Made by a program: the position numbers and the translations under genes. Shown here in pieces: positions 1-45,774 of a stretch of DNA of 55,170 nt. Numbering within the stretch: position 1 is the stretch's first letter; every line of letters begins with the position of its first letter. This DNA comes from a virus. The stretch lies in IMG/VR virus record IMGVR_UViG_3300045988_134649; one strand, given 5' to 3'. The notes beneath the pieces were generated by a model that ran no database searches, was not told the DNA's origin, and saw nothing but the letters and a program-made list of their open reading frames with translations.

Positions 1-48
1 AGTTTAGTTTTTGTGTGAAGCACTTCCTCCGTAAGCGAACGCTGGAAG
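1..48. repeat. Terminal direct repeat, left copy (48 bp, identical to 55123..55170)
   Basis: agtttagtttttgtgtgaagcacttcctccgtaagcgaacgctggaag occurs verbatim at both ends of the window. This fits a circular or terminally redundant genome, or an att duplication. Confidence 0.95.
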
Positions 49-60
49 TGCTTTTGTTTT
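17..60 (+). terminator. Rho-independent terminator-like hairpin spanning the repeat boundary
   Basis: 10-bp stem AAGCACTTCC (18-27) / GGAAGTGCTT (44-53), 16-nt loop, then TTTTGTTTT. If the genome is circular it lies downstream of the last + strand gene (54757..55032). Confidence 0.6.
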
Positions 61-191
61 AGGTGTATCAAGCACTTACGAAAAAAGCAGATTTCCATCA
101 TTTCGCAGCAGGTTGCAAAATTTGATTGTCGGACAATTGTCGGACAGTATTTTTTAATAACCAAATTGTCGCAACTTTATTAAACAAAAAG

Positions 192-1364
192 ATGGCAACA
201 CTTAAACTTTGTATCGTACCAGCTAAAGTGCTTATCAACGGAAAGCACAAAGTAAGAATATCTCTGGCACACAACTCCGGTACCAGGTACATTCCTACAA
301 ACTGTATCATCGATGACTTGTCCCAATTTAAAGACGGTCAAGTTGTCAATCACCCCGAAGCTGCATCTATGAACATGAAGCTCCGAAACCTGCTCAACCA
401 TTACCAAAAAGTCATAGACAACATCTATGATGTGGATGTATATTCATGTTCCGAACTCCGGGAAATCATCATCAAGAAGAAAGACCATACCAATGCCAAA
501 TTCTCCTCAGCTATGAATTCTTATCTATCTGAACTCGCAGAAGAGAAAAGAAGTAAATCAGAGAAGTTATATAGGCTATCCTGCCAGTCCTTCATTAAGT
601 CACAAGGTGACTTATTACTTTCTATGATTACACCTCGGAATATAAAGCATTTCGAGATGGACCTTGAGGATAAGAGGTTATCCCCTACCACTATCAAAAT
701 ATATCTGACATTACTCAAAGTGATTATCAACTATGCAAAGAAGCACAATATGGTGAAATATGAGATTGACCCTTTCGAGTTCTGCCGAATGCCATCCGCT
801 AATATTCGTGAACTAGACCTTACTATTGACGAAGTAAAAGCTATCCGGGATATGGAAATTCCCAAATACAACATAGGTGTAGTACGCGACATATTTATGC
901 TAAGTTATTACCTCGGTGGAATCAACCTTATAGATATGCTTGACATTGATTTCCGTAAAGATTGGATAGAATATTACCGACGGAAAACAAAGAACAAGAA
1001 AAGCGGTGAAAGCAAAACCGCATTTTCAATCCAACCGGAAGCCAGAGAAATCATAAACAAATACATGCAAAAAAACGGAAAACTTGTGTTTGGCAAGTAC
1101 AAAACATTCGGGCAATGCTACTCCGTGGTATCACGTAAAATGGAAGAACTTGCCAAGATAGCTGGCATAAAGAAACATGTGATATATTATTCAGCCCGTA
1201 AATCATTCGTCCAGCACGGATTTGAATTAGGTATCTCCCTAGAAATACTTGAATACTGCATCGGCCAGTCGATGAAAACCAATAGACCAATATTCAACTA
1301 TTTTAGGGTCATGCGAAAACATGCGGATGATGCAATGAGAAAAATCTTCGACAGTCTAAAGTGA
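192..1364 (+). CDS. int: Tyrosine recombinase / integrase (Bacteroidota type, divergent active site)
   Basis: Start taken at MATLKLCIVP (ATG 192). The N-terminal arm-binding-like segment and SAM-like core resemble Bacteroides integrases. C-terminal box II-like YYSARKSF and ...NYFRV (candidate catalytic Tyr). Adjacent to the terminal repeat. Confidence 0.8.
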   Translation: MATLKLCIVPAKVLINGKHKVRISLAHNSGTRYIPTNCIIDDLSQFKDGQVVNHPEAASMNMKLRNLLNHYQKVIDNIYDVDVYSCSELREIIIKKKDHTNAKFSSAMNSYLSELAEEKRSKSEKLYRLSCQSFIKSQGDLLLSMITPRNIKHFEMDLEDKRLSPTTIKIYLTLLKVIINYAKKHNMVKYEIDPFEFCRMPSANIRELDLTIDEVKAIRDMEIPKYNIGVVRDIFMLSYYLGGINLIDMLDIDFRKDWIEYYRRKTKNKKSGESKTAFSIQPEAREIINKYMQKNGKLVFGKYKTFGQCYSVVSRKMEELAKIAGIKKHVIYYSARKSFVQHGFELGISLEILEYCIGQSMKTNRPIFNYFRVMRKHADDAMRKIFDSLK

Positions 1365-1564
1365 TTGTTCTTGGCGAAAGCTATTGCCTCGGCAGTAGCT
1401 TCTTCCCTCTCCTTTTCTATGTCGGAGTTCAAGCGGTCTATTAAGTCCATATTTCCCGTCAGCGCGGTTTTCACACAATCGGAAAACGTGACTGTCAACT
1501 GATAGTGACCGTAACCAATAAAGGACTTAGTGAGTTTCGGAAAGGATGATTCAAGTTTACCCAT
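1298..1564 (-). CDS. Hypothetical small protein (doubtful)
   Basis: 88-aa ORF whose last 67 nt overlap the integrase 3' end on the opposite strand. No recognisable motif. Confidence 0.3.
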   Translation of the reverse strand: MGKLESSFPKLTKSFIGYGHYQLTVTFSDCVKTALTGNMDLIDRLNSDIEKEREEATAEAIAFAKNNHFRLSKIFLIASSACFRMTLK

Positions 1565-1811
1565 AACGCAACCGGATTAAGGAGCGGAAAAAAGAACGGT
1601 TCCGCTTTCCCGTTGCGTTACATACCAAGACAGGCACAGTGCCACCATTACAGCGACAACACGGGGGTCGGAACCGTATAAGAAAAACCACGGGCATTAT
1701 AAAAACACCCGTGATAGACCGGTCAGAATTCCTACCTGTCTCTTAAAAGTATGTAACGCACTGCAAATATGGAAAAAATATGCGAAATAACGAAAATAAT
1801 TCATGCAATAG

Positions 1812-1842
1812 TTGTTTAATAACCAAAAGATTATTATCTTTG
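1812..1842 (+). promoter_or_regulatory. Candidate Bacteroides-type promoter (-7 box TAtcTTTG)
   Basis: TATCTTTG at 1835-1842 matches the TAnnTTTG -7 consensus about 28 nt upstream of the 1870 start. The upstream TTG at 1812-1814 is only a weak -33 element. Confidence 0.35.
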
Positions 1843-1869
1843 TAATGTCAAATAACAAAAGTAACCAAC

Positions 1870-2052
1870 ATGAGTAACGAACAAATTAAAAAGGACCTGC
1901 TTATACAAAGAGCATTCCTCAAAAAAGAATTAGACCAGCTAAGGTTTATTGCCGAAGTTACCGGAACTAACCAGGAAAAAGAGATTGATAAAAGATTAGA
2001 CCGATTACTGACAATCGACAAAATATTGAAAGAGTTAGAAAAAAAGAAGTAA
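1870..2052 (+). CDS. Hypothetical coiled-coil protein (60 aa)
   Basis: Charged heptad-like sequence. First gene of a short + strand pair after the promoter-like motif. Confidence 0.5.
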   Translation: MSNEQIKKDLLIQRAFLKKELDQLRFIAEVTGTNQEKEIDKRLDRLLTIDKILKELEKKK

Positions 2053-2095
2053 AACAAAGTCCCTCTCTCCGGAGAGGGCACTAAAAAACAAATAT

Positions 2096-2500
2096 ATGGC
2101 ACTGAAAGATGAATTACTGGCATTAAAGCCACTACTTGGTACAGACTCTCCAGAGTTCTATACCAAAATGAGAGAAATAGCCGCCAAGTACAATTCGGAA
2201 GAAGATAAAAAAGCTATTGCAGATTTCGTATCAGAACGCTTACAGAACATTGATAGGAAACTGGACGTTATAGAAGAAAGTGCAATCAAATTGCAATTAC
2301 AAGAAGTTGCCGAAATAGTTTCTCTAAGCTATCTTGCGAAAAAGTATTTCAACAAGAGCCGTTCGTGGTTATATCAGAGGTTAAATGGCAATCTGGTAAA
2401 CGGGAAACCGGCACGCTTTACCAAAGAAGAATTACAGACATTCAACAATGCACTACAAGACATATCTCAAAAAATAGGCTCACTTAGTATCTCATATTGA
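2096..2500 (+). CDS. DUF5053-like putative DNA-binding protein
   Basis: C-terminal KYFNKSRSWLYQRLNGNLVNGKPARFTKEELQTFNNALQDISQKIG resembles the Bacteroidota phage/ICE DUF5053 HTH-like signature. This is from memory and was not searched. Confidence 0.5.
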   Translation: MALKDELLALKPLLGTDSPEFYTKMREIAAKYNSEEDKKAIADFVSERLQNIDRKLDVIEESAIKLQLQEVAEIVSLSYLAKKYFNKSRSWLYQRLNGNLVNGKPARFTKEELQTFNNALQDISQKIGSLSISY

Positions 2501-2520
2501 TACTCTGTTATTTGACACCA

Positions 2521-2551
2521 TCCCCGTAGTTGAGCCGCTACGGGGATTTTT
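2521..2551 (+). terminator. Rho-independent terminator
   Basis: 9-bp stem TCCCCGTAG (2521-2529) / CTACGGGGA (2538-2546), 8-nt loop, then TTTTT. Lies between convergent genes. Confidence 0.7.
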
Positions 2552-2554
2552 ATA

Positions 2555-2845
2555 TCAATTACTTATCATCAATTCCCAATTATCCATAATAGTCATATCC
2601 CAACGTGGTACATCAAATTCATTATTGACCGATACCCCATATACAGAAAGACTCTTGCCGGCACTGTCAAACTCAATCAAAGCCGTTTCCTCTCCTTTCT
2701 GGATACGAAGATTCATAAAGTCTGTCATTTGTTCCCAATCGGTAGGGCCGATGAATAATGATTCTATGAGACGCTCTTTCACGGGTGCGCCAATGGCGGT
2801 ATCCTTAATGCGTTCCAAATATAATAAAGCCTCTTTGTAAGTCAT
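2555..2845 (-). CDS. Hypothetical 96-aa protein, last gene of the kinase/receiver cassette
   Basis: Clean ORF co-directional with and downstream of 2903..3928. No motif recognised. Confidence 0.55.
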   Translation of the reverse strand: MTYKEALLYLERIKDTAIGAPVKERLIESLFIGPTDWEQMTDFMNLRIQKGEETALIEFDSAGKSLSVYGVSVNNEFDVPRWDMTIMDNWELMISN

Positions 2846-2902
2846 GGGGCAAAGATAGCAAAATATAGTGAAAAGGGGCGACTATTCAGCCACCCCTTCT
2901 GC

Positions 2903-3928
2903 TCATGGTATATATTTTTGAAGCCTTATTATAATTTTATTATTTGCATACGGAAGTCCACCTATCATATAGGATAAATCACCCCGCTGAAGAACTATAC
3001 TTCCACCATTCATTTCTGTTAGCTTTTTAGCATAATACATGCCTATTCCATACCCATTCAAACTAGCTTTATTAGCCCATGTGCCTGAATAATTTTTCAT
3101 AAAAACAGCTTCAGCCTCACTTTCTTCTATATATAAACTTTGCATTGATATTTCAATAATAACAGATGTTGAATCCGACCGAAACAGAATATTTAATTCT
3201 GATTCTATCCCCATATATTTTGAGGCATTATCCCATATGTGACCCAATACGACAGAAAAAGTTGAATAATCAATTAAAACATCTTCATAACAATTTCCAA
3301 TATTTATATGATTGCTATTTTGAATAAAATCAAGAAAAAAAGGTTGTAAAGTTATACCAACAACCTTATGAATAGAATGTTTCTGTAAATCTAACTCTTC
3401 AATGTTAGAATTAATTAAATCAAACACATTCATTTCAGCATTAATTAATTTTATATTCTTTAGAATCCGGAATAAAGTAAATGCTGTCGTTTCTGGATTA
3501 TCTTGTATATCCTCTTTTATAATATTAATTGTTTCTTTCCAATCTTTTTTGGCAATAGATTCTTGTGGAATTATACTCTCTAGTTCATCTTGAATTTTAG
3601 CATTATAATTATTTATATTATGTCTAAGCACCTTAGAACGAGCTTCTTCCGTTTCACAATCGCCTATTCTACAAAGCTGATTATAGACTAATATCAATAT
3701 ATCTAAAATACGCTTATATTGTTGAGTTGTAATATTCTCATCATATATACACAAATATACAAAACCACTATCGGTATTTTTTTTTCCATGTCTCTTAGTT
3801 TTTTTTAAAATTGGACATGTACAAAACATATTCTCAGCTTTACATTTATCTATTTCCGAATATAGTGTTCGAGGTACATTAGATAAAATAACATTATTTT
3901 GAGAGATAAAATGAAAATATGTGATCAT
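2903..3928 (-). CDS. Soluble histidine-kinase-like protein (HisKA-like H-box + HATPase_c)
   Basis: H-box-like SKVLRHNINNYNAKI, N-box HIWDNASKY, G2-like NGYGIGMYYAKKLTEMNGGSI. No TM segment. Cys-rich N-terminal region of about 95 aa (CKAENMFCTCP). Visibly AT-rich DNA. Confidence 0.75.
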   Translation of the reverse strand: MITYFHFISQNNVILSNVPRTLYSEIDKCKAENMFCTCPILKKTKRHGKKNTDSGFVYLCIYDENITTQQYKRILDILILVYNQLCRIGDCETEEARSKVLRHNINNYNAKIQDELESIIPQESIAKKDWKETINIIKEDIQDNPETTAFTLFRILKNIKLINAEMNVFDLINSNIEELDLQKHSIHKVVGITLQPFFLDFIQNSNHINIGNCYEDVLIDYSTFSVVLGHIWDNASKYMGIESELNILFRSDSTSVIIEISMQSLYIEESEAEAVFMKNYSGTWANKASLNGYGIGMYYAKKLTEMNGGSIVLQRGDLSYMIGGLPYANNKIIIRLQKYIP

Positions 3929-3935
3929 AGCATTT

Positions 3936-4616
3936 TTACATACTGGTAAATAATTGCAATATACTTGCTATAGAAGCTGCATTTTGGATATTAAACGCAG
4001 AAGCTAATTTATCTTCCGTAAAATCTTTCGGATAAATTTTATTAAGTTTCCGTTCTATCTCATTTTCACTCATTGATATATTATATTCATTATAAAGAAT
4101 TCTTTTTATCCGAACTATACAATTTTCCAAACAAAAAGCCTCTTTTGCCAAATGTTCAATAATACTACTAAATTCATATTGATCTGCTGTTTTCCTTATT
4201 CGATAATCAACAAGATTTGCCGCACTATGAAATGAATCAATTTTCCCTTGACTTTCAGCGCTGTACATTACCACCTTCTTATTGGGATATTGTTTTTTAA
4301 TACTAACAATTAGCCCTAGCCCTGCATCTGAATAGCCCATTTTTGTACCGACACCTTGTATATCTACAAAAATAATATGTGCATCCAACACTTCCATTTG
4401 AGATAAACTATCTACATCCTTAATCCATACGGTATTCTTCCAACCGTCTTTATCTCTTAGTCTATCTACCAACTTAAATTTTTGGTCGTCGATAAATAAT
4501 ACCCTACAGCCATTCTTTATATCCTCTAAACTCCTATTGGGCATCTTTTGACGTTTTCTACTAAAAAAGTTATTCCACCAACTCATTTTCTTATATAAAA
4601 ACAATTCAGAAAACAA
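3936..4616 (-). CDS. Receiver (REC) domain protein with uncharacterised C-terminal domain
   Basis: REC signature residues in order: RVLFIDDQ (acidic pair), HIIFVDIQG (phospho-acceptor Asp), KVVMYSA (Ser/Thr), YRIRKT (Lys). About 80 aa of unknown C-terminal extension. The start could instead be Met at 4586 or 4544. Confidence 0.7.
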   Translation of the reverse strand: MFSELFLYKKMSWWNNFFSRKRQKMPNRSLEDIKNGCRVLFIDDQKFKLVDRLRDKDGWKNTVWIKDVDSLSQMEVLDAHIIFVDIQGVGTKMGYSDAGLGLIVSIKKQYPNKKVVMYSAESQGKIDSFHSAANLVDYRIRKTADQYEFSSIIEHLAKEAFCLENCIVRIKRILYNEYNISMSENEIERKLNKIYPKDFTEDKLASAFNIQNAASIASILQLFTSM

Positions 4617-4791
4617 TATATTTTGTTTCTCCTTAATTATAAGTTATTAACTTAGCCCCAAATATAGCATATATAATCCATTTTACACATCATTTTCAGT
4701 ATTTTTGTGTAACAGCTATCACAAACGAACTTAACACTCTACCTTGTATCGGCAACAATCACTTATCTAATAAGCAAGATTTTTTTACATT

Positions 4792-5253
4792 TTACCATAC
4801 AAATAGATTATAACTTATTCCTGCGCCTATATACATGCCGCCCGGATAACCATAACCGACTTGCAACCCTAATCCCCAACGCTTCTTCTTCAACTTGATG
4901 GGGACCGAATGATAGACGTCATTCGTCACCGTCTGATATACCGTCTTCGGATACACCACCATACTATCCAGCCGAGGGTCTACATATCCGCTCACTACCG
5001 CACGATATAAACTATCTGAATACACCACTTGTCGGCGATGAAGCAAGGTATCACCTATCCGTGTCGTATCATCCGGTACGAAGCGCCAGAACACAGCCAT
5101 CGGTGCGGAGATGAGAAGCGTATCAGTCTTGACGATAGTCCTTATCCTCGTCTCGGTTCTGACCTCTGCCGGAGGCTGCTCGTGCGGACGGAACCAAACC
5201 ACCACACAAGCAACTGCCAGCAATACAACCAATATCCACGGTAACCTTTTCAT
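4792..5253 (-). CDS. Membrane-anchored lysis-cassette protein (spanin-like candidate)
   Basis: N-terminal [20 protein letters not shown], Gly-rich C-terminus. Overlaps the endolysin stop by 4 nt. Confidence 0.45.
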
Positions 5254-6397: not shown

Positions 6398-6991
6398 TTA
6401 TTGCATCCTTTTTAAATGGTCATCCAATGTTTTAGGATTGCATTTCAATTTTCTACAAATGGCAGCTTTAGAATATCCGTATTCAAGCATAGTTTTAATC
6501 AATCCTTCTTTACCTGTCAGCTTGTAATGCGAGTTATGCCCACCCTTATGCCGCCCTAATTTCTGTCCTTCGGCAACACGCCTGGCAAGACCTTCTTTGG
6601 TCCGTTGCGAAATCAAATCACGCTCAATCTGAGCTGACAGACCAAAAGCGAAGGCAAGTATCTGAGACTGTATATTGTTACCCAACTCATACTTCTCCTT
6701 TACAGTCAGAACAGTGATTTTTTTTTGCATGAGAGTGTTTAGAATGCTCATCACTTCCATCAGACGACGCCCAAGACGACTAATTTCAGAGCAAATAAGG
6801 GTATCGCCCTTCTTGAGCTTCTTTAGTAAGGTGCCAAGCTTCCGTTCTTTTGCAGACTTGGTTCCGGATATGATTTCCGACACCCATTTGTCTATTTGCA
6901 GTTCTCTTATCTTACAAAACCTCCCTATCTCAAATTTCTGATTCTCAACTGTTTGTTTATCTGTACTGACTCTAATATACGCGTAAATCAT
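6398..6991 (-). CDS. Small serine recombinase (resolvase/invertase family), copy 1
   Basis: N-terminal MIYAYIRVSTDKQTVENQ (catalytic Ser motif), RLGRR, C-terminal HTH (GYSKAAICRKLKCNPKTL). 197 aa, typical of DNA invertases. Confidence 0.85.
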   Translation of the reverse strand: MIYAYIRVSTDKQTVENQKFEIGRFCKIRELQIDKWVSEIISGTKSAKERKLGTLLKKLKKGDTLICSEISRLGRRLMEVMSILNTLMQKKITVLTVKEKYELGNNIQSQILAFAFGLSAQIERDLISQRTKEGLARRVAEGQKLGRHKGGHNSHYKLTGKEGLIKTMLEYGYSKAAICRKLKCNPKTLDDHLKRMQ

Positions 6992-7013
6992 TTTTCACGC
7001 AAAGATATAAAAC

Positions 7014-7625
7014 TCAATTACAAGGTAGAAAATAGCACATCCTTATAAGATGCCTATCCAAAGTTATCGGATTACATTGCAGCCTTCTACAAATGGCAGC
7101 TTTGGAATATCCGTATTCAAACATCTTTTTTATTAGCCGTTCCTTTCCAGTCAATTTATAATGGGAATTCTGAACACCTGGTTTTCGCCCAAGCTTCATC
7201 CCCATGGCTACCCGCCTGGCAAGTCCGGCTTTGGTTCTCCTTGATATATCTTCTCGCTCCCTTTGAGCAAATAAGACCTTTAAAAACGTATCTTGCACAG
7301 AATCTGAATCATCTTTAATAAGCTTGTCATCACGGATTTCTACAATATTGGCTTTGGCAATCAGACAATGAGATATGATAGCTATAACCATATACGCACA
7401 GCGTCCAAGCCTTGAAAGTTCCGTAACATATATGGTATCGCCTTTGTCTATCGTATTCAGTATCTTGCCTAATTTCCGTACATTGGGATGCCTGGCACCA
7501 GACACACTCTCTTCAATCCACTTATCTATAATGAGCCCCTTGCGCTTGCAGTATTCAGTTATCTCGTACCGTTGGTTTTCAACGGTCTGTTTCTCACTGC
7601 TCACTCTGATGTAACCGTAATTCAT
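7014..7625 (-). CDS. Small serine recombinase (resolvase/invertase family), copy 2
   Basis: MNYGYIRVSSEKQTVENQ, RLGRC, C-terminal HTH (GYSKAAICRRLQCNPITL). Clear paralog of 6398..6991. Confidence 0.85.
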   Translation of the reverse strand: MNYGYIRVSSEKQTVENQRYEITEYCKRKGLIIDKWIEESVSGARHPNVRKLGKILNTIDKGDTIYVTELSRLGRCAYMVIAIISHCLIAKANIVEIRDDKLIKDDSDSVQDTFLKVLFAQREREDISRRTKAGLARRVAMGMKLGRKPGVQNSHYKLTGKERLIKKMFEYGYSKAAICRRLQCNPITLDRHLIRMCYFLPCN

Positions 7626-7712
7626 AGGATTCTGTTTTTCTCCTTTAAAAGTAAGAATTTATATGCAATTAATAAAGCATCGAACATAAAGTTTTCATAA
7701 TCCGGAGGATTC

Positions 7713-7760
7713 GCCCCTTAAATGTGTTAAGTATGGCAGAGAAGCAGGATATTAGAGAAG
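7713..7760 (+). repeat. Shufflon recombination-site repeat, copy A (+ orientation)
   Basis: GCCCCTTAAATGTgtTAAGtATGGCAGAgAAGCAgGATATTAGAGAA is shared with 8146..8190 (direct) and 9521..9565 (inverted). Confidence 0.75.
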
Positions 7761-8101
7761 AGCAAATGACTGTAACCAACAGTGTGGATTATCTGCGAGG
7801 CTTGAAAGGAAATAACAGCGTGTTGATTAGCGTATTAGATGCTATATCGAATAAGGCAATTGTTAATAAAGGACATGTTAAGACTGACGTCCTTAATATC
7901 GTCGGGAATTATGTTGCATATTCAACATCAGATATTGATGGCAGTGGAATAGATGGTTGTCTTATCTCGATAAATCCGACCGGGCTTGAAGGTGCACAGA
8001 TTAAAGTTGCATATAATATGAGCATAATTAAAGTTAGAGCTGCCTATAATGTCGATGGAGCAGCGAAATGGTCAGATTGGAAGTCAATAACTATTACTTG
8101 A
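7733..8101 (+). CDS. Shufflon cassette A protein (variable, fibre-associated candidate)
   Basis: ATG at 7733 (MAEKQDIREEQM...). The N-terminus is shared with cassettes B and C. The C-terminal WSDWKSITIT is shared with B (WSEWKSVTLT). Confidence 0.6.
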   Translation: MAEKQDIREEQMTVTNSVDYLRGLKGNNSVLISVLDAISNKAIVNKGHVKTDVLNIVGNYVAYSTSDIDGSGIDGCLISINPTGLEGAQIKVAYNMSIIKVRAAYNVDGAAKWSDWKSITIT

Positions 8102-8129
8102 ACTAACTATTTATTTCCTCCTTTCGCTT

Positions 8130-8141
8130 TTCTGCCATACT
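8130..8141 (-). repeat. Partial inverted copy of the shufflon core (TTCTGCCATACT)
   Basis: Reverse complement of AGTATGGCAGAA (8163-8174; also 7730-7740). It flanks cassette A on its 3' side, so cassette A is bracketed by inverted cores. Confidence 0.6.
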
Positions 8142-8145
8142 CTTT

Positions 8146-8190
8146 GCCCCTTAAATGTATTAAGTATGGCAGAACAAGATATTAGAGAAA
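8146..8190 (+). repeat. Shufflon recombination-site repeat, copy B (+ orientation)
   Basis: GCCCCTTAAATGTatTAAGtATGGCAGAaCAAGATATTAGAGAA. Similarity to copy C continues for about 110 bp into the coding region. Confidence 0.75.
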
Positions 8191-8540
8191 ATACGATGAG
8201 TGGTGGAACTCCGGCACGGCTGCGTGGACTGGCGGCAAACGGCAACAGTATATCACCGACAATTCAAGAGGTGGCAGAAACTTTCGGTAAAGGATATGCT
8301 GCAGATTTGAATAACGAAACAGATTATGGAATTTCTGGCATGTTTAACGCTGATACTATTAATCATCCACCCATTTCATCAGATATTATTTTTGGCATAT
8401 ACTCAAATCATAGAGCAAAATATATAACAGGAGGAGTGTTTTTGTATCAAATAGCTGTCCCAGAAAATATGATAGGAATGTATGTAAGACGATGCTGGAA
8501 TGGGAATTGGAGCGAATGGAAGTCAGTAACTCTTACTTAA
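8166..8540 (+). CDS. Shufflon cassette B protein
   Basis: MAEQDIRENTMSGGTPARLRGLAANGNSISPT closely matches the cassette C N-terminus. The C-terminal part diverges. Confidence 0.65.
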   Translation: MAEQDIRENTMSGGTPARLRGLAANGNSISPTIQEVAETFGKGYAADLNNETDYGISGMFNADTINHPPISSDIIFGIYSNHRAKYITGGVFLYQIAVPENMIGMYVRRCWNGNWSEWKSVTLT

Positions 8541-10102: not shown

Positions 10103-13100
10103 TTAATTAACCGGGTTTTCGTAATCATGGTCACCCAAATCAGCATACGAATACGAAATGCCATTTTTATTGGTTGAAATCCAGACTCCTCCCAATGATA
10201 TGAATTCATAAACACCAGGCTCTGTGATATGAGCTTTATTGCAATAATGGTATTGACCGTCAACCAACTCCATATCATTAAATCCGTCCGATGTCACAAC
10301 TGACACATAGCCATATGTGCTCCCTGAAGAATTATTATATATGATCAAGGATATTTTCATACCCACACATTGGGCAGAGCTGGGAAGCATGTATTCACTT
10401 TGGCCTATTCTACTGGGACGCCCATTGCCAAAATCCGAACCAAAATTGGGGTTCAGGTAAAAGTAGCCTTCATTGGAACTAAACCCATGTATCTTTATGA
10501 ATGCCGCTGTCGCTGTAATTTTTCCTTGAACATTGACTTCTCCAGTCTCACCATCAATGTTACAAGTGACATTTCCATTCTTATCCCTTGCCAATACGTT
10601 CTGTACCACCAAATCATCCACAAGGATTTCATCGGCACGTATCTTTCTTATTAAAGCCATATCCATAGCTACAAACATAAACTGCTGTGCCGCCTCCCAA
10701 TTAGCATCACCGTCTATCGAGGTAGGTGCGACAGTGACCGACGTACCGTAAGCCCGTACCCGAAACGGAATGGTGCGATTGTTGAATGTGGCCAGTACGA
10801 TGTCATGGTAATCTTCATTCCAGACATATGTGTTGCCCTTGGCGAAAAAACCTCTCGGACGCGGCTCACTGGCATCCCGTCCGCTTGAACCGTCATAGCT
10901 GACACCCACGGACATCTCCGCAATGAAACTGTCATTCCATGCCGAAGCGTCAGCCTGGCTCTGGTAACAGCGGACAGAGAAAGTTGAATACCCTGCAGAA
11001 GCGTTGACCGTAATCTCGGAAGCCCTCGAAGGCCCTGCGATGGCGCTCCATATCCCGTTGCTGTACCCCCGTGCGGCCAGATATCCGTCCGGATAAGTCA
11101 ATGTGGCGCTGCCGAGCGTCCGCTTGGCATAGACCCGAAAAGCTGAAGGCACCAAAGACCCGGCACTGCTCACCCGTATATTGCTGCATGTACTGATGAG
11201 ATATACCATGCCGCCATCCTGGGTAAGCTGCTCCCATTCGGCCGTGTTCACTTCTCCGGTAGGAATATAGCCGTAGCTCTTTCCACCGTTCTGTGTCTGT
11301 AGGATGCGCCTATCCTGACTGTCATTGACTGTCCATAGAGGTGGATTCGATGTATCAACCTTGGAGAGCCATGACCGGCCACCCATCGTGCAGATGGTGA
11401 GCTTTTTGAATGGAGTATTAGCTGTGCGCCACTCACCGCCAGCCTTGACGGATTCGCCGTCACCGCCAGGTTTTCCTGGATTACCGTCGTTACCATCCAC
11501 GACCATGGGTATAGTTTCCCGGTCCACGACCTGCCCACCCACATAATAGACAAATTGTAACTGCGTCGTGAAGTTCTTCGGAGAGATGGACGTGCCGTTC
11601 TGTATCTCGACCTCTGCGCCTCCGTCCTTACTGTATTTCAGTACGCCATCCGTCGTGATGGAAGTGCTACCGCCTACAGACTTGGTACGTGTACATGACA
11701 CCCCGGCTACACTATAAGTGCCGTCCTTCCGTTTGCTGACTGAAGAAACGGAAGGCACCAGCCTATAGAGTACCGCATCACTGCCCGGATTACCGGCACG
11801 CACCCCGGTAACAGTGAACACCAGCTCACGGCTTATATCCGTATCCTGTACTGTAGCCGTAACGGTTATCCTGACCTCTGAACGTGCAGGCATCGAAATG
11901 CCGGAAGCCACGGTAAACGCTATCACACCCGTATTGACATTGTAGCTCTCCGTGACACCGGAGGGCGTCACGCATGAGATGGACTTGAGCTGTAGTTTCT
12001 TCGTACCATACCACATGCCGACGGTCGTATTGAGCACGGACTGCGAAACAGTCTTTCCTTCGTATGTCAAGGCAATGCTTTCCATCTCGTTGTCGAAATC
12101 GGCTACAATGGCCGACTCGCCGTCAAAGCCCCATTTGGCCCAGATGGCTGCCGGGCTGAACGCGCTCCATAGACCGTCCTTCTTCGTGCGGCAACAAGCC
12201 CACTCGTATGGCAGGCTCTCGCTGACACCAATCGGGTCATCATGCCAGCCGGACGGCACGTAGTCATCAGTCTGTGATGTGGCAGGGGTTGCCGGAGCGA
12301 TATTTTCCGCAGTATGCTTAAAAATCCATTCATAATCCCTACCGTCACGCCCGTCCTGGCCGTTCTCCACCAGCAGCTCATACTCAGCGGTATTCAAGTC
12401 CCCGGTAATGGTATAACCGTAGGACTTGCCGCCGTTCTGGGTCTGCAGGATACGGCGCCCCTCATTGGTCGTCTGAGTCCACATCGGAGGATTGTCTGTA
12501 CCACCGGGAGCGACACATAAAAACACACGTCCGGCCATCCTGGTAATACCCATGTAAGGTATATGCTTGCCGGTCTGCCAGTCACCGCAATTGGTAATGC
12601 TTGTACCGTCTGCACCCTTGCTGCCAGTCACACAGATGGCGTTCGTTGTGGTGGAAGTATCGTCAGTAAAGACTATCCTTGTCCGGGTCCAGATATACCA
12701 GCCGTTTTTCCACGCCGGAGAGTCTGTCTGCCACTCGCCTCCGGTTGTGGTGGCCGATGAAGAGGAAAGGTAGTATTCTTCGGTAATGGACTTGATGCCC
12801 TTGCCGTCGGCTCCCTGCCCACCACTGATACAAGCCGCTTGGGTGTACTTGACTTCGCCATCAGAATAGACAATCTTCGTCCGCGACCAGATATACTTGC
12901 CGGCTTCCCATTCTGGGGAGGTAGTCTGCCAACCGTCCACCGGGGCAATGACATTCGACACCGATATCGCGTATTCCACATCGGTAGACTTGATGCCCTT
13001 GCCGCTTTCTCCCTTTGCCGCATATTTCAGCCAGTCGGCATTGCCGTCTGCCGGTTCTGTAGACGTGCCTTTCTCATTGACACATATCCATGAGCTGCCG

Positions 13101-14065
13101 TTATGCGTCACCTCATCGTAATAGGCATACTTCTCATCCTTTTCCCACGTCCCCTTGAATAGCGGCACCCGGAAAGCCTCGCCGGTGATGTCATCTACCT
13201 GGAATATCTTGCCGGACATGATGACGTGGCGAAAAACAGCCGAGTAGTTGTCTGCAGGAATACCATGCACGGTACGGCCTTTCTTCTTACCAATCCACGA
13301 CATCTCTTGTGCCGGTTCCGGGTCCCATGTATTGGCGTGGTCAAAGAAAGTAATGCAGTTGTTGCCACCCACCGTATCGATAAGGATGTACGTCTGTCTA
13401 TCCTCATCTGTAAAGTTACCCGTCTGGGCGAGTACCATCGCATCCCCCGGCTTCCAGTCGGTACCCGGTTTCGGCGTCATGACGAATGTCTTGGCAGTGT
13501 AATCGGCAGAAGTCACCCGGAACTTCATCTCCTCGAACCCCTGCAGCTTGCCTTCAGGTGACTTGGTGACGAAGTAGGTGGTCAGAATGTCATCGACAAA
13601 CTGGCTCAGACCGTCGGCATCGGTCAGGTCAGGGGTTATGGTATAGCTACCGTCACCATTATCGCTCCACTCCTTGACCGTACACCCACCTCCGGGAGAG
13701 GCACACATACGTCCCTTGAAATAGGTCACACGGTTATAGGCAATCTCTGGAACAAACAGACGCTTCCTAAATATGCCTTCCTCCATCTCGAGAATGCCGT
13801 TCTTGTCGATGCACCCTCCGGAAATACCGGTGATGAATTCGCCGAACTTGACCCAATCTCCGAAGGTAATCGGAAAAGGAGTGCCGTCAGCCTGGTCTTT
13901 GCGGAGGAACACCTTTGATAATTCCTCGATGCTCATTCCTTGTTGAATGAGTTCAAGAATGCCAATAAATGTCCGTCCAACCCTCTCTGCGGTATTCTCT
14001 CCCTCAGAAGAGGCGTTCCTTATCTGTAGAGCAAGTTTCCTTAATATGTCAAGTGTATCAGGCAT
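10103..14065 (-). CDS. Tail fibre / receptor-binding protein (1320 aa)
   Basis: Large ORF with collagen-like G-x-x runs (GQDGRDGRD, DGNDGNPGKPGGDG). Internal domain duplications (WQT.SP.W..G.YIW.RT.IV twice; PP.WT....RRILQTQNGGKSYGY twice). Sits in the virion block. Confidence 0.8.
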   Translation of the reverse strand: MPDTLDILRKLALQIRNASSEGENTAERVGRTFIGILELIQQGMSIEELSKVFLRKDQADGTPFPITFGDWVKFGEFITGISGGCIDKNGILEMEEGIFRKRLFVPEIAYNRVTYFKGRMCASPGGGCTVKEWSDNGDGSYTITPDLTDADGLSQFVDDILTTYFVTKSPEGKLQGFEEMKFRVTSADYTAKTFVMTPKPGTDWKPGDAMVLAQTGNFTDEDRQTYILIDTVGGNNCITFFDHANTWDPEPAQEMSWIGKKKGRTVHGIPADNYSAVFRHVIMSGKIFQVDDITGEAFRVPLFKGTWEKDEKYAYYDEVTHNGSSWICVNEKGTSTEPADGNADWLKYAAKGESGKGIKSTDVEYAISVSNVIAPVDGWQTTSPEWEAGKYIWSRTKIVYSDGEVKYTQAACISGGQGADGKGIKSITEEYYLSSSSATTTGGEWQTDSPAWKNGWYIWTRTRIVFTDDTSTTTNAICVTGSKGADGTSITNCGDWQTGKHIPYMGITRMAGRVFLCVAPGGTDNPPMWTQTTNEGRRILQTQNGGKSYGYTITGDLNTAEYELLVENGQDGRDGRDYEWIFKHTAENIAPATPATSQTDDYVPSGWHDDPIGVSESLPYEWACCRTKKDGLWSAFSPAAIWAKWGFDGESAIVADFDNEMESIALTYEGKTVSQSVLNTTVGMWYGTKKLQLKSISCVTPSGVTESYNVNTGVIAFTVASGISMPARSEVRITVTATVQDTDISRELVFTVTGVRAGNPGSDAVLYRLVPSVSSVSKRKDGTYSVAGVSCTRTKSVGGSTSITTDGVLKYSKDGGAEVEIQNGTSISPKNFTTQLQFVYYVGGQVVDRETIPMVVDGNDGNPGKPGGDGESVKAGGEWRTANTPFKKLTICTMGGRSWLSKVDTSNPPLWTVNDSQDRRILQTQNGGKSYGYIPTGEVNTAEWEQLTQDGGMVYLISTCSNIRVSSAGSLVPSAFRVYAKRTLGSATLTYPDGYLAARGYSNGIWSAIAGPSRASEITVNASAGYSTFSVRCYQSQADASAWNDSFIAEMSVGVSYDGSSGRDASEPRPRGFFAKGNTYVWNEDYHDIVLATFNNRTIPFRVRAYGTSVTVAPTSIDGDANWEAAQQFMFVAMDMALIRKIRADEILVDDLVVQNVLARDKNGNVTCNIDGETGEVNVQGKITATAAFIKIHGFSSNEGYFYLNPNFGSDFGNGRPSRIGQSEYMLPSSAQCVGMKISLIIYNNSSGSTYGYVSVVTSDGFNDMELVDGQYHYCNKAHITEPGVYEFISLGGVWISTNKNGISYSYADLGDHDYENPVN

Positions 14066-37345: not shown

Positions 37346-37672
37346 TCAATATTTTTTATTATTTTTTCTATTCCGCTCGCTCTGTACCTCTGCCATACAC
37401 ATCTTGCACCATGACGCTTTCAGATGGTATTCCTTACCGTTACGACGGGCTGTCCTATCGAAGAATCTGGATAATGGAAGTGCTCTACCGCAACGGGTGC
37501 ACAGTTTACGCTCCACTCCGTCAACCACCACCCGGTTACGGGGTTTCCTCCTCACGATTTCACATGGTCCGCATTCGGACGCACCGTACCTCCTGCAATA
37601 GGCAAGTGAGTGCTTGCCGCACTTGGCGAAGGAGGTGCAATCCGAACGGGGAACTATCTGGTGAATGTTCAT
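37346..37672 (-). CDS. Cys-rich (Zn-binding-like) basic protein
   Basis: CGPCE...CTRCG...CKMC motifs. 4-nt overlap with the upstream methyltransferase fusion. Confidence 0.45.
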   Translation of the reverse strand: MNIHQIVPRSDCTSFAKCGKHSLAYCRRYGASECGPCEIVRRKPRNRVVVDGVERKLCTRCGRALPLSRFFDRTARRNGKEYHLKASWCKMCMAEVQSERNRKNNKKY

Positions 37673-43727: not shown

Positions 43728-44089
43728 AATAGGTAAGAATTGACTTCATTCATAAACTCAGTAAGAGAATGGCATACCACATATTTATTTCGGAACTTTT
43801 CAGCCTCTCTCTGCCATCTTATCTGCTCCTCGCTTTGTTTCCCTTTCGGTCTCTTCATTTCGATGCAAAGAGCGGAAAATCCTTTCTTAGGTACAAGCAG
43901 TATCAAATCGGAAACACCCCTTACACTTCCCTCGTACTTCATTTGTGCTCCAGTCCTGGCATCACGCTTTCCTCCGTTGGGAACGGCGAACAACATAAGA
44001 CTCAAAGACGGGTATTGAATCCGGAACCAAGTCAGACAGCTATGCTGTATCTGACTTTCCGATTGCGGTGTAGTCTGTCTTTTTCTCAT
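43724..44089 (-). CDS. VRR-NUC domain nuclease
   Basis: GVSDLILLVP...ALCIEMKRPKGK (D...E-x-K) and the overall 121-aa size. Confidence 0.75.
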   Translation of the reverse strand: MRKRQTTPQSESQIQHSCLTWFRIQYPSLSLMLFAVPNGGKRDARTGAQMKYEGSVRGVSDLILLVPKKGFSALCIEMKRPKGKQSEEQIRWQREAEKFRNKYVVCHSLTEFMNEVNSYLL

Positions 44090-45774
44090 AATTTACCTTT
44101 GAATAAGTCCATAGCCATATCTACCACATTCTCCTTAACCACATCGTCCGTTCCGGTGACACCGTTAGCTATGCCTTTCTTCCGTTGGATAACACCATAC
44201 ATGTATTCATCAATGGTATTCCTGCCAAGGAAATAGTAACAGTTGACGTTATTCTTCTGCCCATTACGGTGTGCCCTATCTTCCGCCTGCTCACAGTCAG
44301 AAAAAGTCCATGGGAACTCGATGAAGGCTACACGGCTGGAAGCAGTCAAGGTGAGCCCGGTACCGCCCGATTTGTAGTTAAGGATAATCAACGTACAATC
44401 CGGATTGTTCTGGAAAGCATCCACAGCCATCTGCTTCTGGGCAGCATTATCCTCGCCGGTAACAGTCACTGCTTTCGGAAACATATTCTTCAGCTCCATT
44501 ACCACTTCTTTCAGGTAGGCAAAGACAATCAGCTTTTCCCCACCGTCTATCACGTCATGTATGAATTCGGCAGCCGCCTTGATTTTTCCACGCGCAGAAA
44601 TGGCTTTCAATATTCCCATGCGTACCATCACCTCGCCCCTCATGGACTTGGCTATCTTCTCATCATCCGCATTCTTGTAGACACGCAGATATTGTATGAG
44701 GTCGTTTTCCGCTTTTTCATACTCAAGCCGTGTGGTGATATCCATCTCAATATACTGCCTCGTCTTGTCCGGAAGCTGGGTCAATACCTTGGCTTTTTCA
44801 CGCCGGAAGAAGCAGGTATTCCAAAGGCGCCAGTTCAGTTCTTTCAGATTGGAGGCTTTCTTCGGCCCATTACAGAAACGTTCGGTGAATGTCCTATACC
44901 CTCCGAAATCCTCCAACCGTCCCATTATCTTAAGTTGCTGTATAAGGTCAGTATTATCGTTTACTACCGGTGTTCCCGTCAGTTCAAGAATGAAATCCTT
45001 GCCCTTACAGATGCCCTCAACAAACTTACTCTGTTGGGTCTTGGTAGACTTGCACTTATGCGACTCGTCAATGATTACAGACTTGAAAAGGGTTATACGT
45101 GGGTCAAAGGTGATTGATTTCAGCGTAAACCGCGTATCATTCTTCACATCCAATACAAAGAACTTTTTCAGGCTCTCGTAGTTAGTGATGAAGATGTCAC
45201 AACACTTGGTTTCAATGAAGCGCTGCCAAGTATTTTTGTTCTTATCATCAAGGATTAGCGCCTGCTTTCCAGCAAATTTCTTGAACTCACGCTGCCAATT
45301 TATTTTAAGTGCTGCCGGACATACAACAAGGCACGGATAGGATTTTGCAATCGTCACCGTGCCTATTGCCTGCAAGGTCTTACCGAGTCCCGGCTGGTCA
45401 CCGAAGATACACCGTTTATGGGCCAGAGCATAGGCTATGCCCTCCTTCTGGTAATCGTACGGTTCAAGTAGCAATCCGTGGGGAACGGTCAGCTGCGGCA
45501 TCGGAGCAATGTCAAAACTCATATCGACCTTTCTTTGCTCCGACCGTTGTACGGAACCGCAGAATCCCTGCTGTACCGCCCATTTCGCCATTGTATCAAC
45601 ATACCATTCATCAGCCAAGTCAACCCACCACGCCTTTTCATTGAAAAGATATGCTTTCTTTGCGTTAGCCTTGACTGACGGAATATTGTTCACGCATTTA
45701 ACCAACATCGGATGATACATGAATTTCAGTTTGAAGCCGTCCGGATATTTGGTGATACAAAAAGGTGCTGCCAT
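44086..45774 (-). CDS. SNF2-family helicase
   Basis: DYQKEGIAYAL...GDQPGLGKTLQAI (motif I), VIIDESHKCKS (motif II), LTGTPVVN (III), GGTGLTLT...QAEDRAHRNGQ (V/VI). Confidence 0.9.
   Translation of the reverse strand: MAAPFCITKYPDGFKLKFMYHPMLVKCVNNIPSVKANAKKAYLFNEKAWWVDLADEWYVDTMAKWAVQQGFCGSVQRSEQRKVDMSFDIAPMPQLTVPHGLLLEPYDYQKEGIAYALAHKRCIFGDQPGLGKTLQAIGTVTIAKSYPCLVVCPAALKINWQREFKKFAGKQALILDDKNKNTWQRFIETKCCDIFITNYESLKKFFVLDVKNDTRFTLKSITFDPRITLFKSVIIDESHKCKSTKTQQSKFVEGICKGKDFILELTGTPVVNDNTDLIQQLKIMGRLEDFGGYRTFTERFCNGPKKASNLKELNWRLWNTCFFRREKAKVLTQLPDKTRQYIEMDITTRLEYEKAENDLIQYLRVYKNADDEKIAKSMRGEVMVRMGILKAISARGKIKAAAEFIHDVIDGGEKLIVFAYLKEVVMELKNMFPKAVTVTGEDNAAQKQMAVDAFQNNPDCTLIILNYKSGGTGLTLTASSRVAFIEFPWTFSDCEQAEDRAHRNGQKNNVNCYYFLGRNTIDEYMYGVIQRKKGIANGVTGTDDVVKENVVDMAMDLFKGKL

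Follow-up and report, generated by a model that had tools for sequence, protein, structure and literature searches.

A Prophage-Borne Gene Pair of the PDC-M43 Type Encoding a Receiver and a Histidine-Kinase-Like Protein as a Candidate Phosphotransfer Defense Module

Introduction

The described systems closest to the locus presented here are Detocs, Ambrosia and the PDC candidates. Detocs consists of three genes, which encode a kinase with TPRs (DtcA), a buffer receiver (DtcB) and a receiver-effector (DtcC) (Rousset et al., bioRxiv 10.1101/2023.01.24.525353). The kinase histidine (H645) and the receiver aspartate are both essential, and 80% of the operons have a PNP ATP nucleosidase as the effector, transmembrane effectors occurring in minor variants (bioRxiv 10.1101/2023.01.24.525353). 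Ambrosia (AbrR/A/B/C/D) comprises five genes, among them an XRE regulator, a methylase and an HNH nuclease; its receiver (REC) protein carries a helix-turn-helix of the winged type (wHTH) and is thought to control a restriction-modification (R-M)-like module transcriptionally (bioRxiv 10.1101/2025.09.30.679545). PDC systems are candidates that were predicted because their genes occur inside BREX, DISARM and type I R-M systems (guilt-by-embedding), and the supplementary table of that work assigns the cassette CAS_00151 (FAM_00604>>FAM_02649) to PDC-M43 (Payne et al., bioRxiv 10.1101/2024.01.29.577857). In DefensePredictor, HATPase and REC appear only as figure-legend abbreviations, for predicted systems with unvalidated domains. 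The present article deals with two adjacent genes, A and B, which encode a receiver protein and a histidine-kinase-like protein in the virus record IMGVR_UViG_3300045988_134649 of IMG/VR; the whole stretch of 55,170 nucleotides is referred to as the window.

Both proteins match the models that PADLOC-DB v2.0.0 provides for PDC-M43 (PDLC04644-04650), and the locus shares with that candidate the A-then-B adjacency (with a gap of 7 nt in the window) and, as seen in homologues of the pair, the embedding in type I R-M systems. A first-pass annotation of this DNA, made from the letters alone, had compared the locus with Detocs and suggested an undescribed variant. Neither idea survives: the pair belongs with a catalogued candidate, and membership in Detocs is ruled out on gene content and domains (no DtcB, no TPR kinase, no PNP effector). 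What the pair would have in common with Detocs is a two-component-like phosphotransfer, the phospho-His and phospho-Asp being invariant here at the sequence level (H103 and D75), and the fusion of a receiver to an output that probably does not bind DNA. It differs in having two genes, with a 341-aa kinase-like B that lacks TPRs (no TPR match in Pfam) where the Detocs kinase is much larger, and it has no buffer receiver and no PNP, nuclease or hydrolase domain. A PADLOC scan of A and B at E≤1 returned only PDC-M43 models and one weak REase_II match.

Ambrosia resembles the locus in that a kinase-like HATPase gene and a gene for a REC protein occur together, in Ambrosia within an R-M-associated defense cluster; the pair of the window stands alone and has no recognizable helix-turn-helix (HTH). 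Classical two-component systems are resembled by the sensor-DHp-CA fold of B and by the CheY-like receiver of A with its catalytic quintet. The differences from them are a Met-x-Ser in place of Asp-x-Gly in the G1 box of B, window copies that stay below the Pfam thresholds, an orphan output domain in A, and a context of defense islands and mobile elements instead of regulons.

A Two-Gene Unit Acquired as Low-GC Cargo

Three open reading frames (ORFs) at 4616..3936, 3928..2903 and 2845..2555, all on the minus strand, had been taken for a three-gene cassette. The frames and their common strand are confirmed; the functional unit, however, consists of two genes, A and B. Gene A directly precedes B, on the same strand, in all 14 genome loci that had a true B homologue and available upstream sequence (Bacteroidota, Calditrichota and Proteobacteria), the order is kept on E. 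coli and Burkholderia plasmids too, and no conserved third gene was found beside the pair across the loci compared. The third frame, gene C (2555..2845, minus strand, 96 aa), is a conserved backbone and boundary gene of the prophage. It belongs to a separate and large family (144 proteins at E≤0.001) that is found in many Bacteroides prophage contigs without A-B, and it is missing from two loci (L093 and L105) that share the cassette at 97%, with aligned window blocks 2873-5253 and 457-2555. The backbone base composition of gene C and its position after a terminator-like hairpin also count against a cassette of three genes. Gene C gave no match in PADLOC, Pfam or NCBIfam, and receiver features are absent from it.

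The guanine-cytosine (GC) content is 0.318 in gene A and 0.279 in gene B, 0.402 in gene C, 0.49 in the neighboring lysis genes and 0.415 on average over the window. The AT-rich island that had been drawn around all three frames is real for A and B and limited to them, gene C being near the window mean.

The borders of the cargo were located by blastn against a related prophage (L096), which carries a different 4.7-kb cargo. Window positions 1-2898 and 4812-5253 align with it, and therefore the swapped segment is exactly 2899..4811 (minus strand, GC ~0.30), made up of A-B and its upstream region. A terminator scan detected a terminator-like hairpin with a 13-bp stem and a T-rich tract at 2871..2900 (minus strand), 3 nt past the gene B stop; it is placed within the block 1-2898 common to L096, overlaps the 2873 breakpoint relative to L093 and L105, and is part of the conserved flank. 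A-B was thus acquired horizontally, as low-GC cargo, by a temperate phage of the Bacteroides type.

The Receiver Protein A

Gene A (3936..4586, minus strand) encodes a PDC-M43A-type receiver protein of 216 aa. The listed ORF, whose coordinates are correct, reaches a TTG at 4616 (226 aa), and the gene had been read from there. The start is most likely the ATG at 4586, far likelier than the TTG, because a length of ~205-225 aa prevails among the 98 homologue clusters and because, next to a 99% identical copy of B, the upstream gene is annotated as 216 aa, from the ATG.

The receiver (REC) domain of A comprises residues 20-151 (4134..4529, minus strand), as delimited by the AlphaFold2 (AF2) fold, Foldseek and conserved columns. 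AF2 models the protein with a pLDDT of 89.5 and a pTM of 0.83 as a (beta-alpha)5 domain at 20-151 followed by four helices within 153-214. The top Foldseek matches in PDB are all receiver domains (NtrX, Spo0F and a Thermotoga regulator; target TM-score 0.7-0.76), and a search of PDB and BFVD (viral models) with the full-length model gave receiver-domain matches and nothing else. Among 35 homologues D33, D75 (in IIFVDIQ), S109 and K132 never vary, D34 being nearly invariant, which bears out the canonical REC residues named in the first-pass annotation; hhalign places D33/D34, D75 and S109 on D12/D13, D57 and T87 of CheY. The codons were verified on the minus strand at 4490..4485 (D33/D34), 4364..4362 (the phospho-acceptor D75), 4262..4260 (S109) and 4193..4191 (K132), and a family-specific invariant insertion, G78-V79-G80, directly follows D75. 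By its (beta-alpha)5 fold and by its acidic pair, phospho-Asp, Ser and Lys, A is a CheY-like receiver. Pfam Response_reg gave no match in A at E≤1, and a profile built from the 35 homologues found solved receiver domains weakly (E 0.04-0.4). The PADLOC models of PDC-M43A match well (PDLC04646, E 1.9e-50; PDLC04645, E 3.2e-33; PDLC04644, E 8.2e-33) and align to the receiver domain alone (residues 20-159 of the 226-aa form).

The receiver is preceded by a basic and aromatic N-terminal tail and followed by a helical domain at residues 152-216 (3939..4133, minus strand; AF2), which lies outside all three PADLOC models. The presence of a C-terminal domain without assignment had been seen correctly, and its size is ~65 aa in place of the ~80 aa estimated. 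Its four AF2 helices span 153-168, 174-184, 191-198 and 204-214; Cys156 is invariant, the pI is 6.4, and the last helix, NAASIASILQLF, is conserved and moderately hydrophobic. No consistent Pfam family was found for the domain, none being common to more than 2 of 22 members, and a profile search of PDB gave coiled-coil noise only. When its profile was run against 1.84 billion representative proteins there were 36 matches, essentially all of them A-family-sized proteins with the match at the C-terminal end, or short fragments. By these profile searches the domain classifies as an orphan.

On the plasmid proteins of Burkholderia and E. coli the PDC-M43A models align from one end to the other. 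These proteobacterial A proteins have an N-terminal transmembrane helix (hydropathy KD19 2.1-2.7) and a receiver, without the C-terminal domain, whereas the phage-borne A of the window has no transmembrane segment (best KD19 1.07) and carries the extra domain. Since the models match only the receiver of the window protein yet cover the plasmid transmembrane receivers fully, A is, as judged from its domain make-up, an architectural variant of PDC-M43A, and this variant is the dominant one in Bacteroidota.

The Histidine-Kinase-Like Protein B

Gene B (2903..3928, minus strand), located 7 nt past the gene A stop, encodes the histidine-kinase-like protein PDC-M43B of 341 aa. The PADLOC model PDLC04647 matches it with E 4.9e-73, residues 9-338 aligning to profile positions 10-343 of 347. 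In Pfam, HATPase_c reaches 21.8 bits in B, short of the gathering cutoff of 26.4; precomputed PF02518 is present in 45 of 51 clusters of B homologues. NCBIfam kinase models match the CA region with E down to 1.5e-9, and the B family profile finds the WalK CA domain in PDB (E 3e-10). With PADLOC matches as strong as those of A and B (E 1.9e-50 and 4.9e-73), the features read in the two proteins are not a product of chance.

The AF2 model of B (pLDDT 86) has an alpha/beta region at 1-62, long helices at 68-119 and 130-173 and an alpha/beta CA region at 182-338. Foldseek recognizes in it the sensor-DHp-CA fold of histidine kinases, with WalK, HK853, YycG and LOV/PAS kinases at E 1e-15 to 1e-10. 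The putative N-terminal sensor domain (residues 1-65; 3734..3928, minus strand; AF2) is formed by strands 2-9, 12-16, 34-37, 44-51 and 55-62 and a helix at 20-28, and long Foldseek alignments extend to PAS/LOV kinases, for instance 4gcz and 4i5s. No other domain of B varies as much, its mean pairwise identity being 33% (DHp, 40%; CA, 47%). The DHp-like helical hairpin (residues 66-175; 3404..3733, minus strand) was delimited by alignment, AF2 and Foldseek matches to the DHp and CA domains of HK853 and WalK. It contains His103 (codon 3622..3620) within the motif R-L-x-H-N-(I/V/L). The CA domain (GHKL ATPase-like; residues 176-341; 2906..3403, minus strand) has an N box and a G2 box. Invariant among 31 homologues are His103 (in LRHNINN), N234, K237 and Y238 of the N box and G292, G294 and G296 of the G2 box.

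The first-pass picture of a kinase-like protein without a transmembrane segment (none is found in B; best KD19 0.98) and with H, N and G2 boxes is therefore correct, and what it missed is the lack of the G1 aspartate. In GHKL ATPases the Asp-x-Gly of the G1 box contacts adenine N6. In B this place is taken, in the printed PDB profile alignments, by Met262 (3145..3143) and Ser264, and M-x-S is found in every member examined, from Bacteroidota, Calditrichota and Proteobacteria to the plasmid copies. The cysteine-rich N-terminal region that had been pointed out as a feature of B does not hold up; a cysteine-rich or zinc-binding sensor is ruled out, the N-terminal cysteines not being conserved among the 31 homologues.

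A Cargo and Defense Hotspot of Bacteroides-Type Prophages

The window phage is temperate, and its gene set includes an integrase, an endolysin, a DNA invertase, a tail fiber, a tape-measure-like protein and helicases. No close relative was found when the first 25 kb of the window were compared by megablast with deposited phage records. Directly upstream of A-B are the endolysin and DUF6808 genes. The slot that holds the pair is bounded by the DUF6808 gene of the lysis module on one side (4792-5253 in the window) and by the end with gene C, DUF5053 and the integrase on the other (2555-2845 on the gene C side), and its content varies among related prophages. One of these (L096) has five genes there, including a CoiA_N protein with a weak DruB-like match and a CIS_TMP protein. 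Others carry ShosT and ShosA (L101; E 1.5e-20 and 3.4e-62), a DUF4145 protein (L102) or a Bro-N/BstA-like protein (L103; E 2e-8). In a more distant phage (L106) the A-B pair is followed by a DpnII/MboI-type nuclease and an HTH_3 controller (C) protein. Neither in the window nor in L093 does the pair have a partner defense gene beside it; it stands by itself there. The slot is a genuine cargo and defense hotspot of this family of Bacteroides-type prophages, and the moron or defense-hotspot position ascribed to the locus at first reading is upheld by the ShosTA, the BstA-like gene and the DpnII-type nuclease that related prophages hold in it.

Hotspots of P2/P4-type prophages and satellites reportedly hold varied defense systems, as Rousset and colleagues are said to have described in 2022. 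The likeness lies in a fixed slot between conserved backbone genes, here with ShosTA, a BstA-like gene, a DpnII nuclease and PDC-M43 as alleles; the difference is that the present hotspot belongs to a Bacteroides-type lineage and has flanks of its own, with DUF6808 from the lysis module at one end and the 96-aa gene, DUF5053 and the integrase at the opposite end.

Two loci with A-B were found in IMG/VR, both close relatives of the cassette of the window, and INPHARED yielded nothing beyond a partial match of 33% to the CA domain.

Genomic Contexts of the Homologues

In two separate lineages the pair is located inside type I R-M operons. In one (L095) the order is HsdM-HsdS-A-B-HsdR, adjoining a Multi_ubiq/ThiF pair, and in the other (L004) it is HsdM-HsdS-x-A-B-x-AAA_15-x-HsdR-YgjP. 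In a third lineage (L081-86) A-B comes directly after hsdR and is followed by an HTH gene and a GmrSD-type gene (DUF262/GmrSD). Elsewhere the pair stands between ThsB/ThsA (Thoeris) and genes for an AAA protein and an S8 peptidase (L087), or in an integrase-bounded island of unknown genes (L090). Alistipes hominis (L001) and Bacteroides finegoldii JCM 13345 (L009) carry it on a CTnDOT-like integrative and conjugative element (ICE). Their 21-kb loci are >99% identical over the aligned blocks, and in B. finegoldii gene A is frameshifted (split) and gene B intact.

On a Burkholderia plasmid A-B adjoins a DUF262 gene. The E. coli IncF plasmid pZ1322MEC0001-2 (L107; NZ_CP148569.1, 52495-54157) has the pair flanked by IS3 and Tn3, with NACHT and DUF3800 genes close by; it encodes WP_341486241.1, a transmembrane receiver of 201 aa, and WP_169782976.1, of 354 aa, annotated as 'HAMP domain-containing histidine kinase'. 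This homologue was absent from 5,426 complete E. coli genomes (megablast). As a native E. coli PDC-M43 pair it offers a convenient test case.

PADLOC, applied to 110 neighbors from 12 genome loci, detected type I methyltransferases and restriction endonucleases, retron reverse transcriptases, AbiLi, NsnB and several other PDC candidates. The neighbors of A-B differ in every lineage, and no metabolic regulon was found among the contexts examined. The survey of gene neighborhoods that the first-pass annotation had recommended thus places the homologues in defense islands and mobile elements.

Proposed Mode of Action and Alternative Explanations

We lean, with somewhat better than even confidence, towards A-B being a prophage-borne defense module that acts via His-Asp phosphotransfer and shields the lysogen from other phages, through either superinfection exclusion or abortive infection. 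Competing readings were weighed each on its own, and the confidence given to them need not sum to one. According to the proposed mechanism, soluble B would sense an infection cue via its small, fast-evolving N-terminal domain, and the cue would alter the phosphorylation state of His103. This state would in turn set the phosphorylation of Asp75 in A, and the phospho-switch would act through the non-receiver part of A, which in the window protein comprises the basic and aromatic N-terminal tail and the orphan C-terminal domain of four helices (~65 aa). The defense function, the direction of signaling and the output are what we infer in this scheme; the folds, the conserved residues, the linkage of A to B, the borders of the cassette and its genomic surroundings are observed. 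An output at the membrane, or by oligomerization of the receiver, is favored over transcription with low confidence, because the PADLOC-type A has only a transmembrane helix attached to its receiver.

The conserved receiver quintet of A, together with His103, the N box and the G2 box of B, is counted as phosphotransfer chemistry under selection, and a variable N-terminal domain is as expected for an immune sensor. Also counted in favor are the match of both proteins to PDC-M43, the strict linkage of A and B, the defense genes around the homologues, and the hotspot with its exact cargo borders and low GC, a promoter motif ahead of the pair and a terminator-like hairpin behind it. The validated precedent is Detocs, which shows that anti-phage effectors, some of them transmembrane, can be put under the control of His-Asp phosphotransfer.

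Several points weigh against the defense module. Neither A nor B has a recognizable effector domain, and an association with islands and mobile elements is equally typical of addiction modules and regulators. Within IMG/VR, A-B is limited to one phage lineage. The 145 PDCs were called 'untested' by their authors (Payne et al., bioRxiv 10.1101/2024.01.29.577857), and mention of 'PDC-M43' was not found in the literature searched. As to the membrane, the last helix of the window protein is weakly hydrophobic (KD19 1.07, less than the usual transmembrane threshold) and AF2 packs it confidently into the bundle, so that membrane insertion of this variant is speculative; a transmembrane tail anchor formed by this helix is unsupported for the window copy, a few homologues reaching ~1.6-1.7. 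Finally, neither canonical ATP recognition nor ATP-dependent autophosphorylation of B is assured, given that all members examined have Met at the place of the adenine-binding G1 Asp.

A related idea, put forward tentatively and judged unlikely, is that PDC-M43 is a minimal effector-less phosphorelay immune system. B, with Met for the universal GHKL Asp, would then have abandoned adenine recognition of the canonical kind and would use another phosphodonor or be a guarded phosphatase, and a phosphorylation-driven assembly of the receiver would block or kill. Such assembly would take place at the membrane via the transmembrane helix or, in the variant of Bacteroidota and prophages, via the orphan helical domain.

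The departures of B from an ordinary kinase also admit a guard logic, to which we give a low probability. B would be a His-dependent phosphatase or phosphotransferase, not an ATP-dependent autokinase, and would hold A in the unphosphorylated state; acetyl phosphate or host kinases would otherwise phosphorylate it, and a phage factor that binds or inactivates B would lead to a build-up of phosphorylated A and to output. This is still defense, with the direction of signaling reversed. The replacement of the GHKL motif-II Asp by Met throughout the family fits such a role, and so does the residue after the phospho-His, which is Asn and not acidic as in HisKA, while the H-x-x-x-(N/T/S) position is kept. 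That position is used for phosphatase activity in HisKA kinases. The conserved catalytic residues of the receiver would, in principle, let A autophosphorylate from small donors. On the other hand, the invariant Asn, Lys and Tyr of the N box and the glycines of G2 argue that a nucleotide triphosphate is still bound, and HisKA_2 and HWE kinases likewise do without an acidic residue after the His and are active all the same.

An ordinary regulatory two-component system, in which A would be a DNA-binding regulator with a degenerate HTH that switches nearby defense or phage genes, is considered distinctly unlikely. Two-component genes are known near R-M systems, the Ambrosia pair being thought to control an R-M-like module, and some homologues of A have been named 'NarL/FixJ family response regulator' by JGI. 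The last three helices of A are superficially similar to a tri-helical HTH, with a helix-helix-turn-helix arrangement and the pattern (I/L)A..F(N/G)(L/I)(S/Q)...S(I/V); single members give scattered Pfam HTH matches (E 0.003-0.1), and hhalign superposes these helices on the Hin HTH. The similarity is, however, statistically null (hhalign probability 1.7% for Hin and 0.2% for GerE), and no Pfam family recurs in more than 2 of the 22 members. The C-terminal domain is neutral and its putative recognition helix has no basic residue, the sister clade has a transmembrane helix only and no C-terminal domain at all, and in the window and L093 there is no partner defense gene to regulate, the neighbors differing by lineage. 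The statement that A has no DNA-binding output domain is thus probably right, with the reservation that a degenerate HTH fold is possible.

Very improbable is a cargo with no part in defense, be it an addiction or stabilization (toxin-antitoxin-like) module or a phage life-cycle sensor, acting for instance on lysis or induction: every copy of the pair sits on mobile or island DNA (prophage, CTnDOT-like ICE, plasmids, between IS3 and Tn3), that of the window follows the endolysin and DUF6808 genes directly, and gene A of B. finegoldii is broken next to an intact B, but three lineages have the pair in or beside chromosomal type I R-M operons, where a lysis function makes no sense, the allelic cargo of the same prophage slot consists of known defense genes, and a toxin-like domain occurs in neither A nor B.

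Other Features of the Window

A candidate promoter motif of the Bacteroides-type -7 form TAnnTTTG (TATATTTG) is located at 4659..4666 (minus strand), ~75 nt upstream of the gene A ATG. The motif is short and a scan gave 34 matches on the minus strand of the window, so that the one upstream of A is only suggestive. Gene C has its own TAnnTTTG motif (TATCTTTG; 2857..2850, minus strand) 5 nt upstream of its ATG, which is equally short and only suggestive. In L093 (5085-5618) and L094 an opposite-strand gene for a 177-aa Pvc16_N-domain protein is found in place of gene C, and the boundary gene of the hotspot is therefore itself exchangeable. A GC-rich hairpin with an 11-bp stem at 2520-2547, where the genes 2096..2500 (DUF5053-like, plus strand) and C (minus strand) converge, is likely a shared terminator. 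No tRNA gene, looked for as an attachment site, is present in the window.

The region 6398-8540 contains tandem serine-recombinase/DNA-invertase genes at 6398..6991 and 7014..7625 (minus strand), the former matching phrog_125 (E 1.9e-43) and the latter assigned from its similar translation. On the plus strand follow two paralogous ORFs of 124-125 aa (7724..8101 and 8166..8540) with N- and C-terminal peptides in common, and a 16-nt inverted repeat (7730-7745 / 8126-8141, 94% complementary) flanks the first of them. This region is probably an invertible tail-fiber-tip or host-range switch for the tail-fiber gene at 10103..14065. Further along, an 838-aa protein (37669-40185) matches both a helicase (phrog_16, E 1.9e-119) and a DNA-methyltransferase (phrog_67, E 1.5e-28), and another helicase gene lies at 44086..45774.

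Concluding Remarks

The A-B pair is a credible defense candidate, small, experimentally tractable and mechanistically opaque. Should it give no phenotype, the outcome would be that a catalogued candidate merely has a phage-borne copy. The Met in place of Asp in B affects a position considered universal among GHKL ATPases and raises the question of which nucleotide is bound and of whether B is a kinase or a phosphatase. The mapped hotspot, from DUF6808 to the 96-aa gene, could be searched for more systems that bear on phage-host dynamics in the gut. If A-B protects lysogens, it would be a second, mechanistically distinct phosphotransfer immune system beside Detocs, and the smallest, with sensing, signaling and output contained in two proteins (216 and 341 aa) without a known effector domain. 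If, in addition, the effector-less phosphorelay were true of PDC-M43, it would represent a new effector principle for two-component proteins, used by a gut prophage to exclude its competitors.

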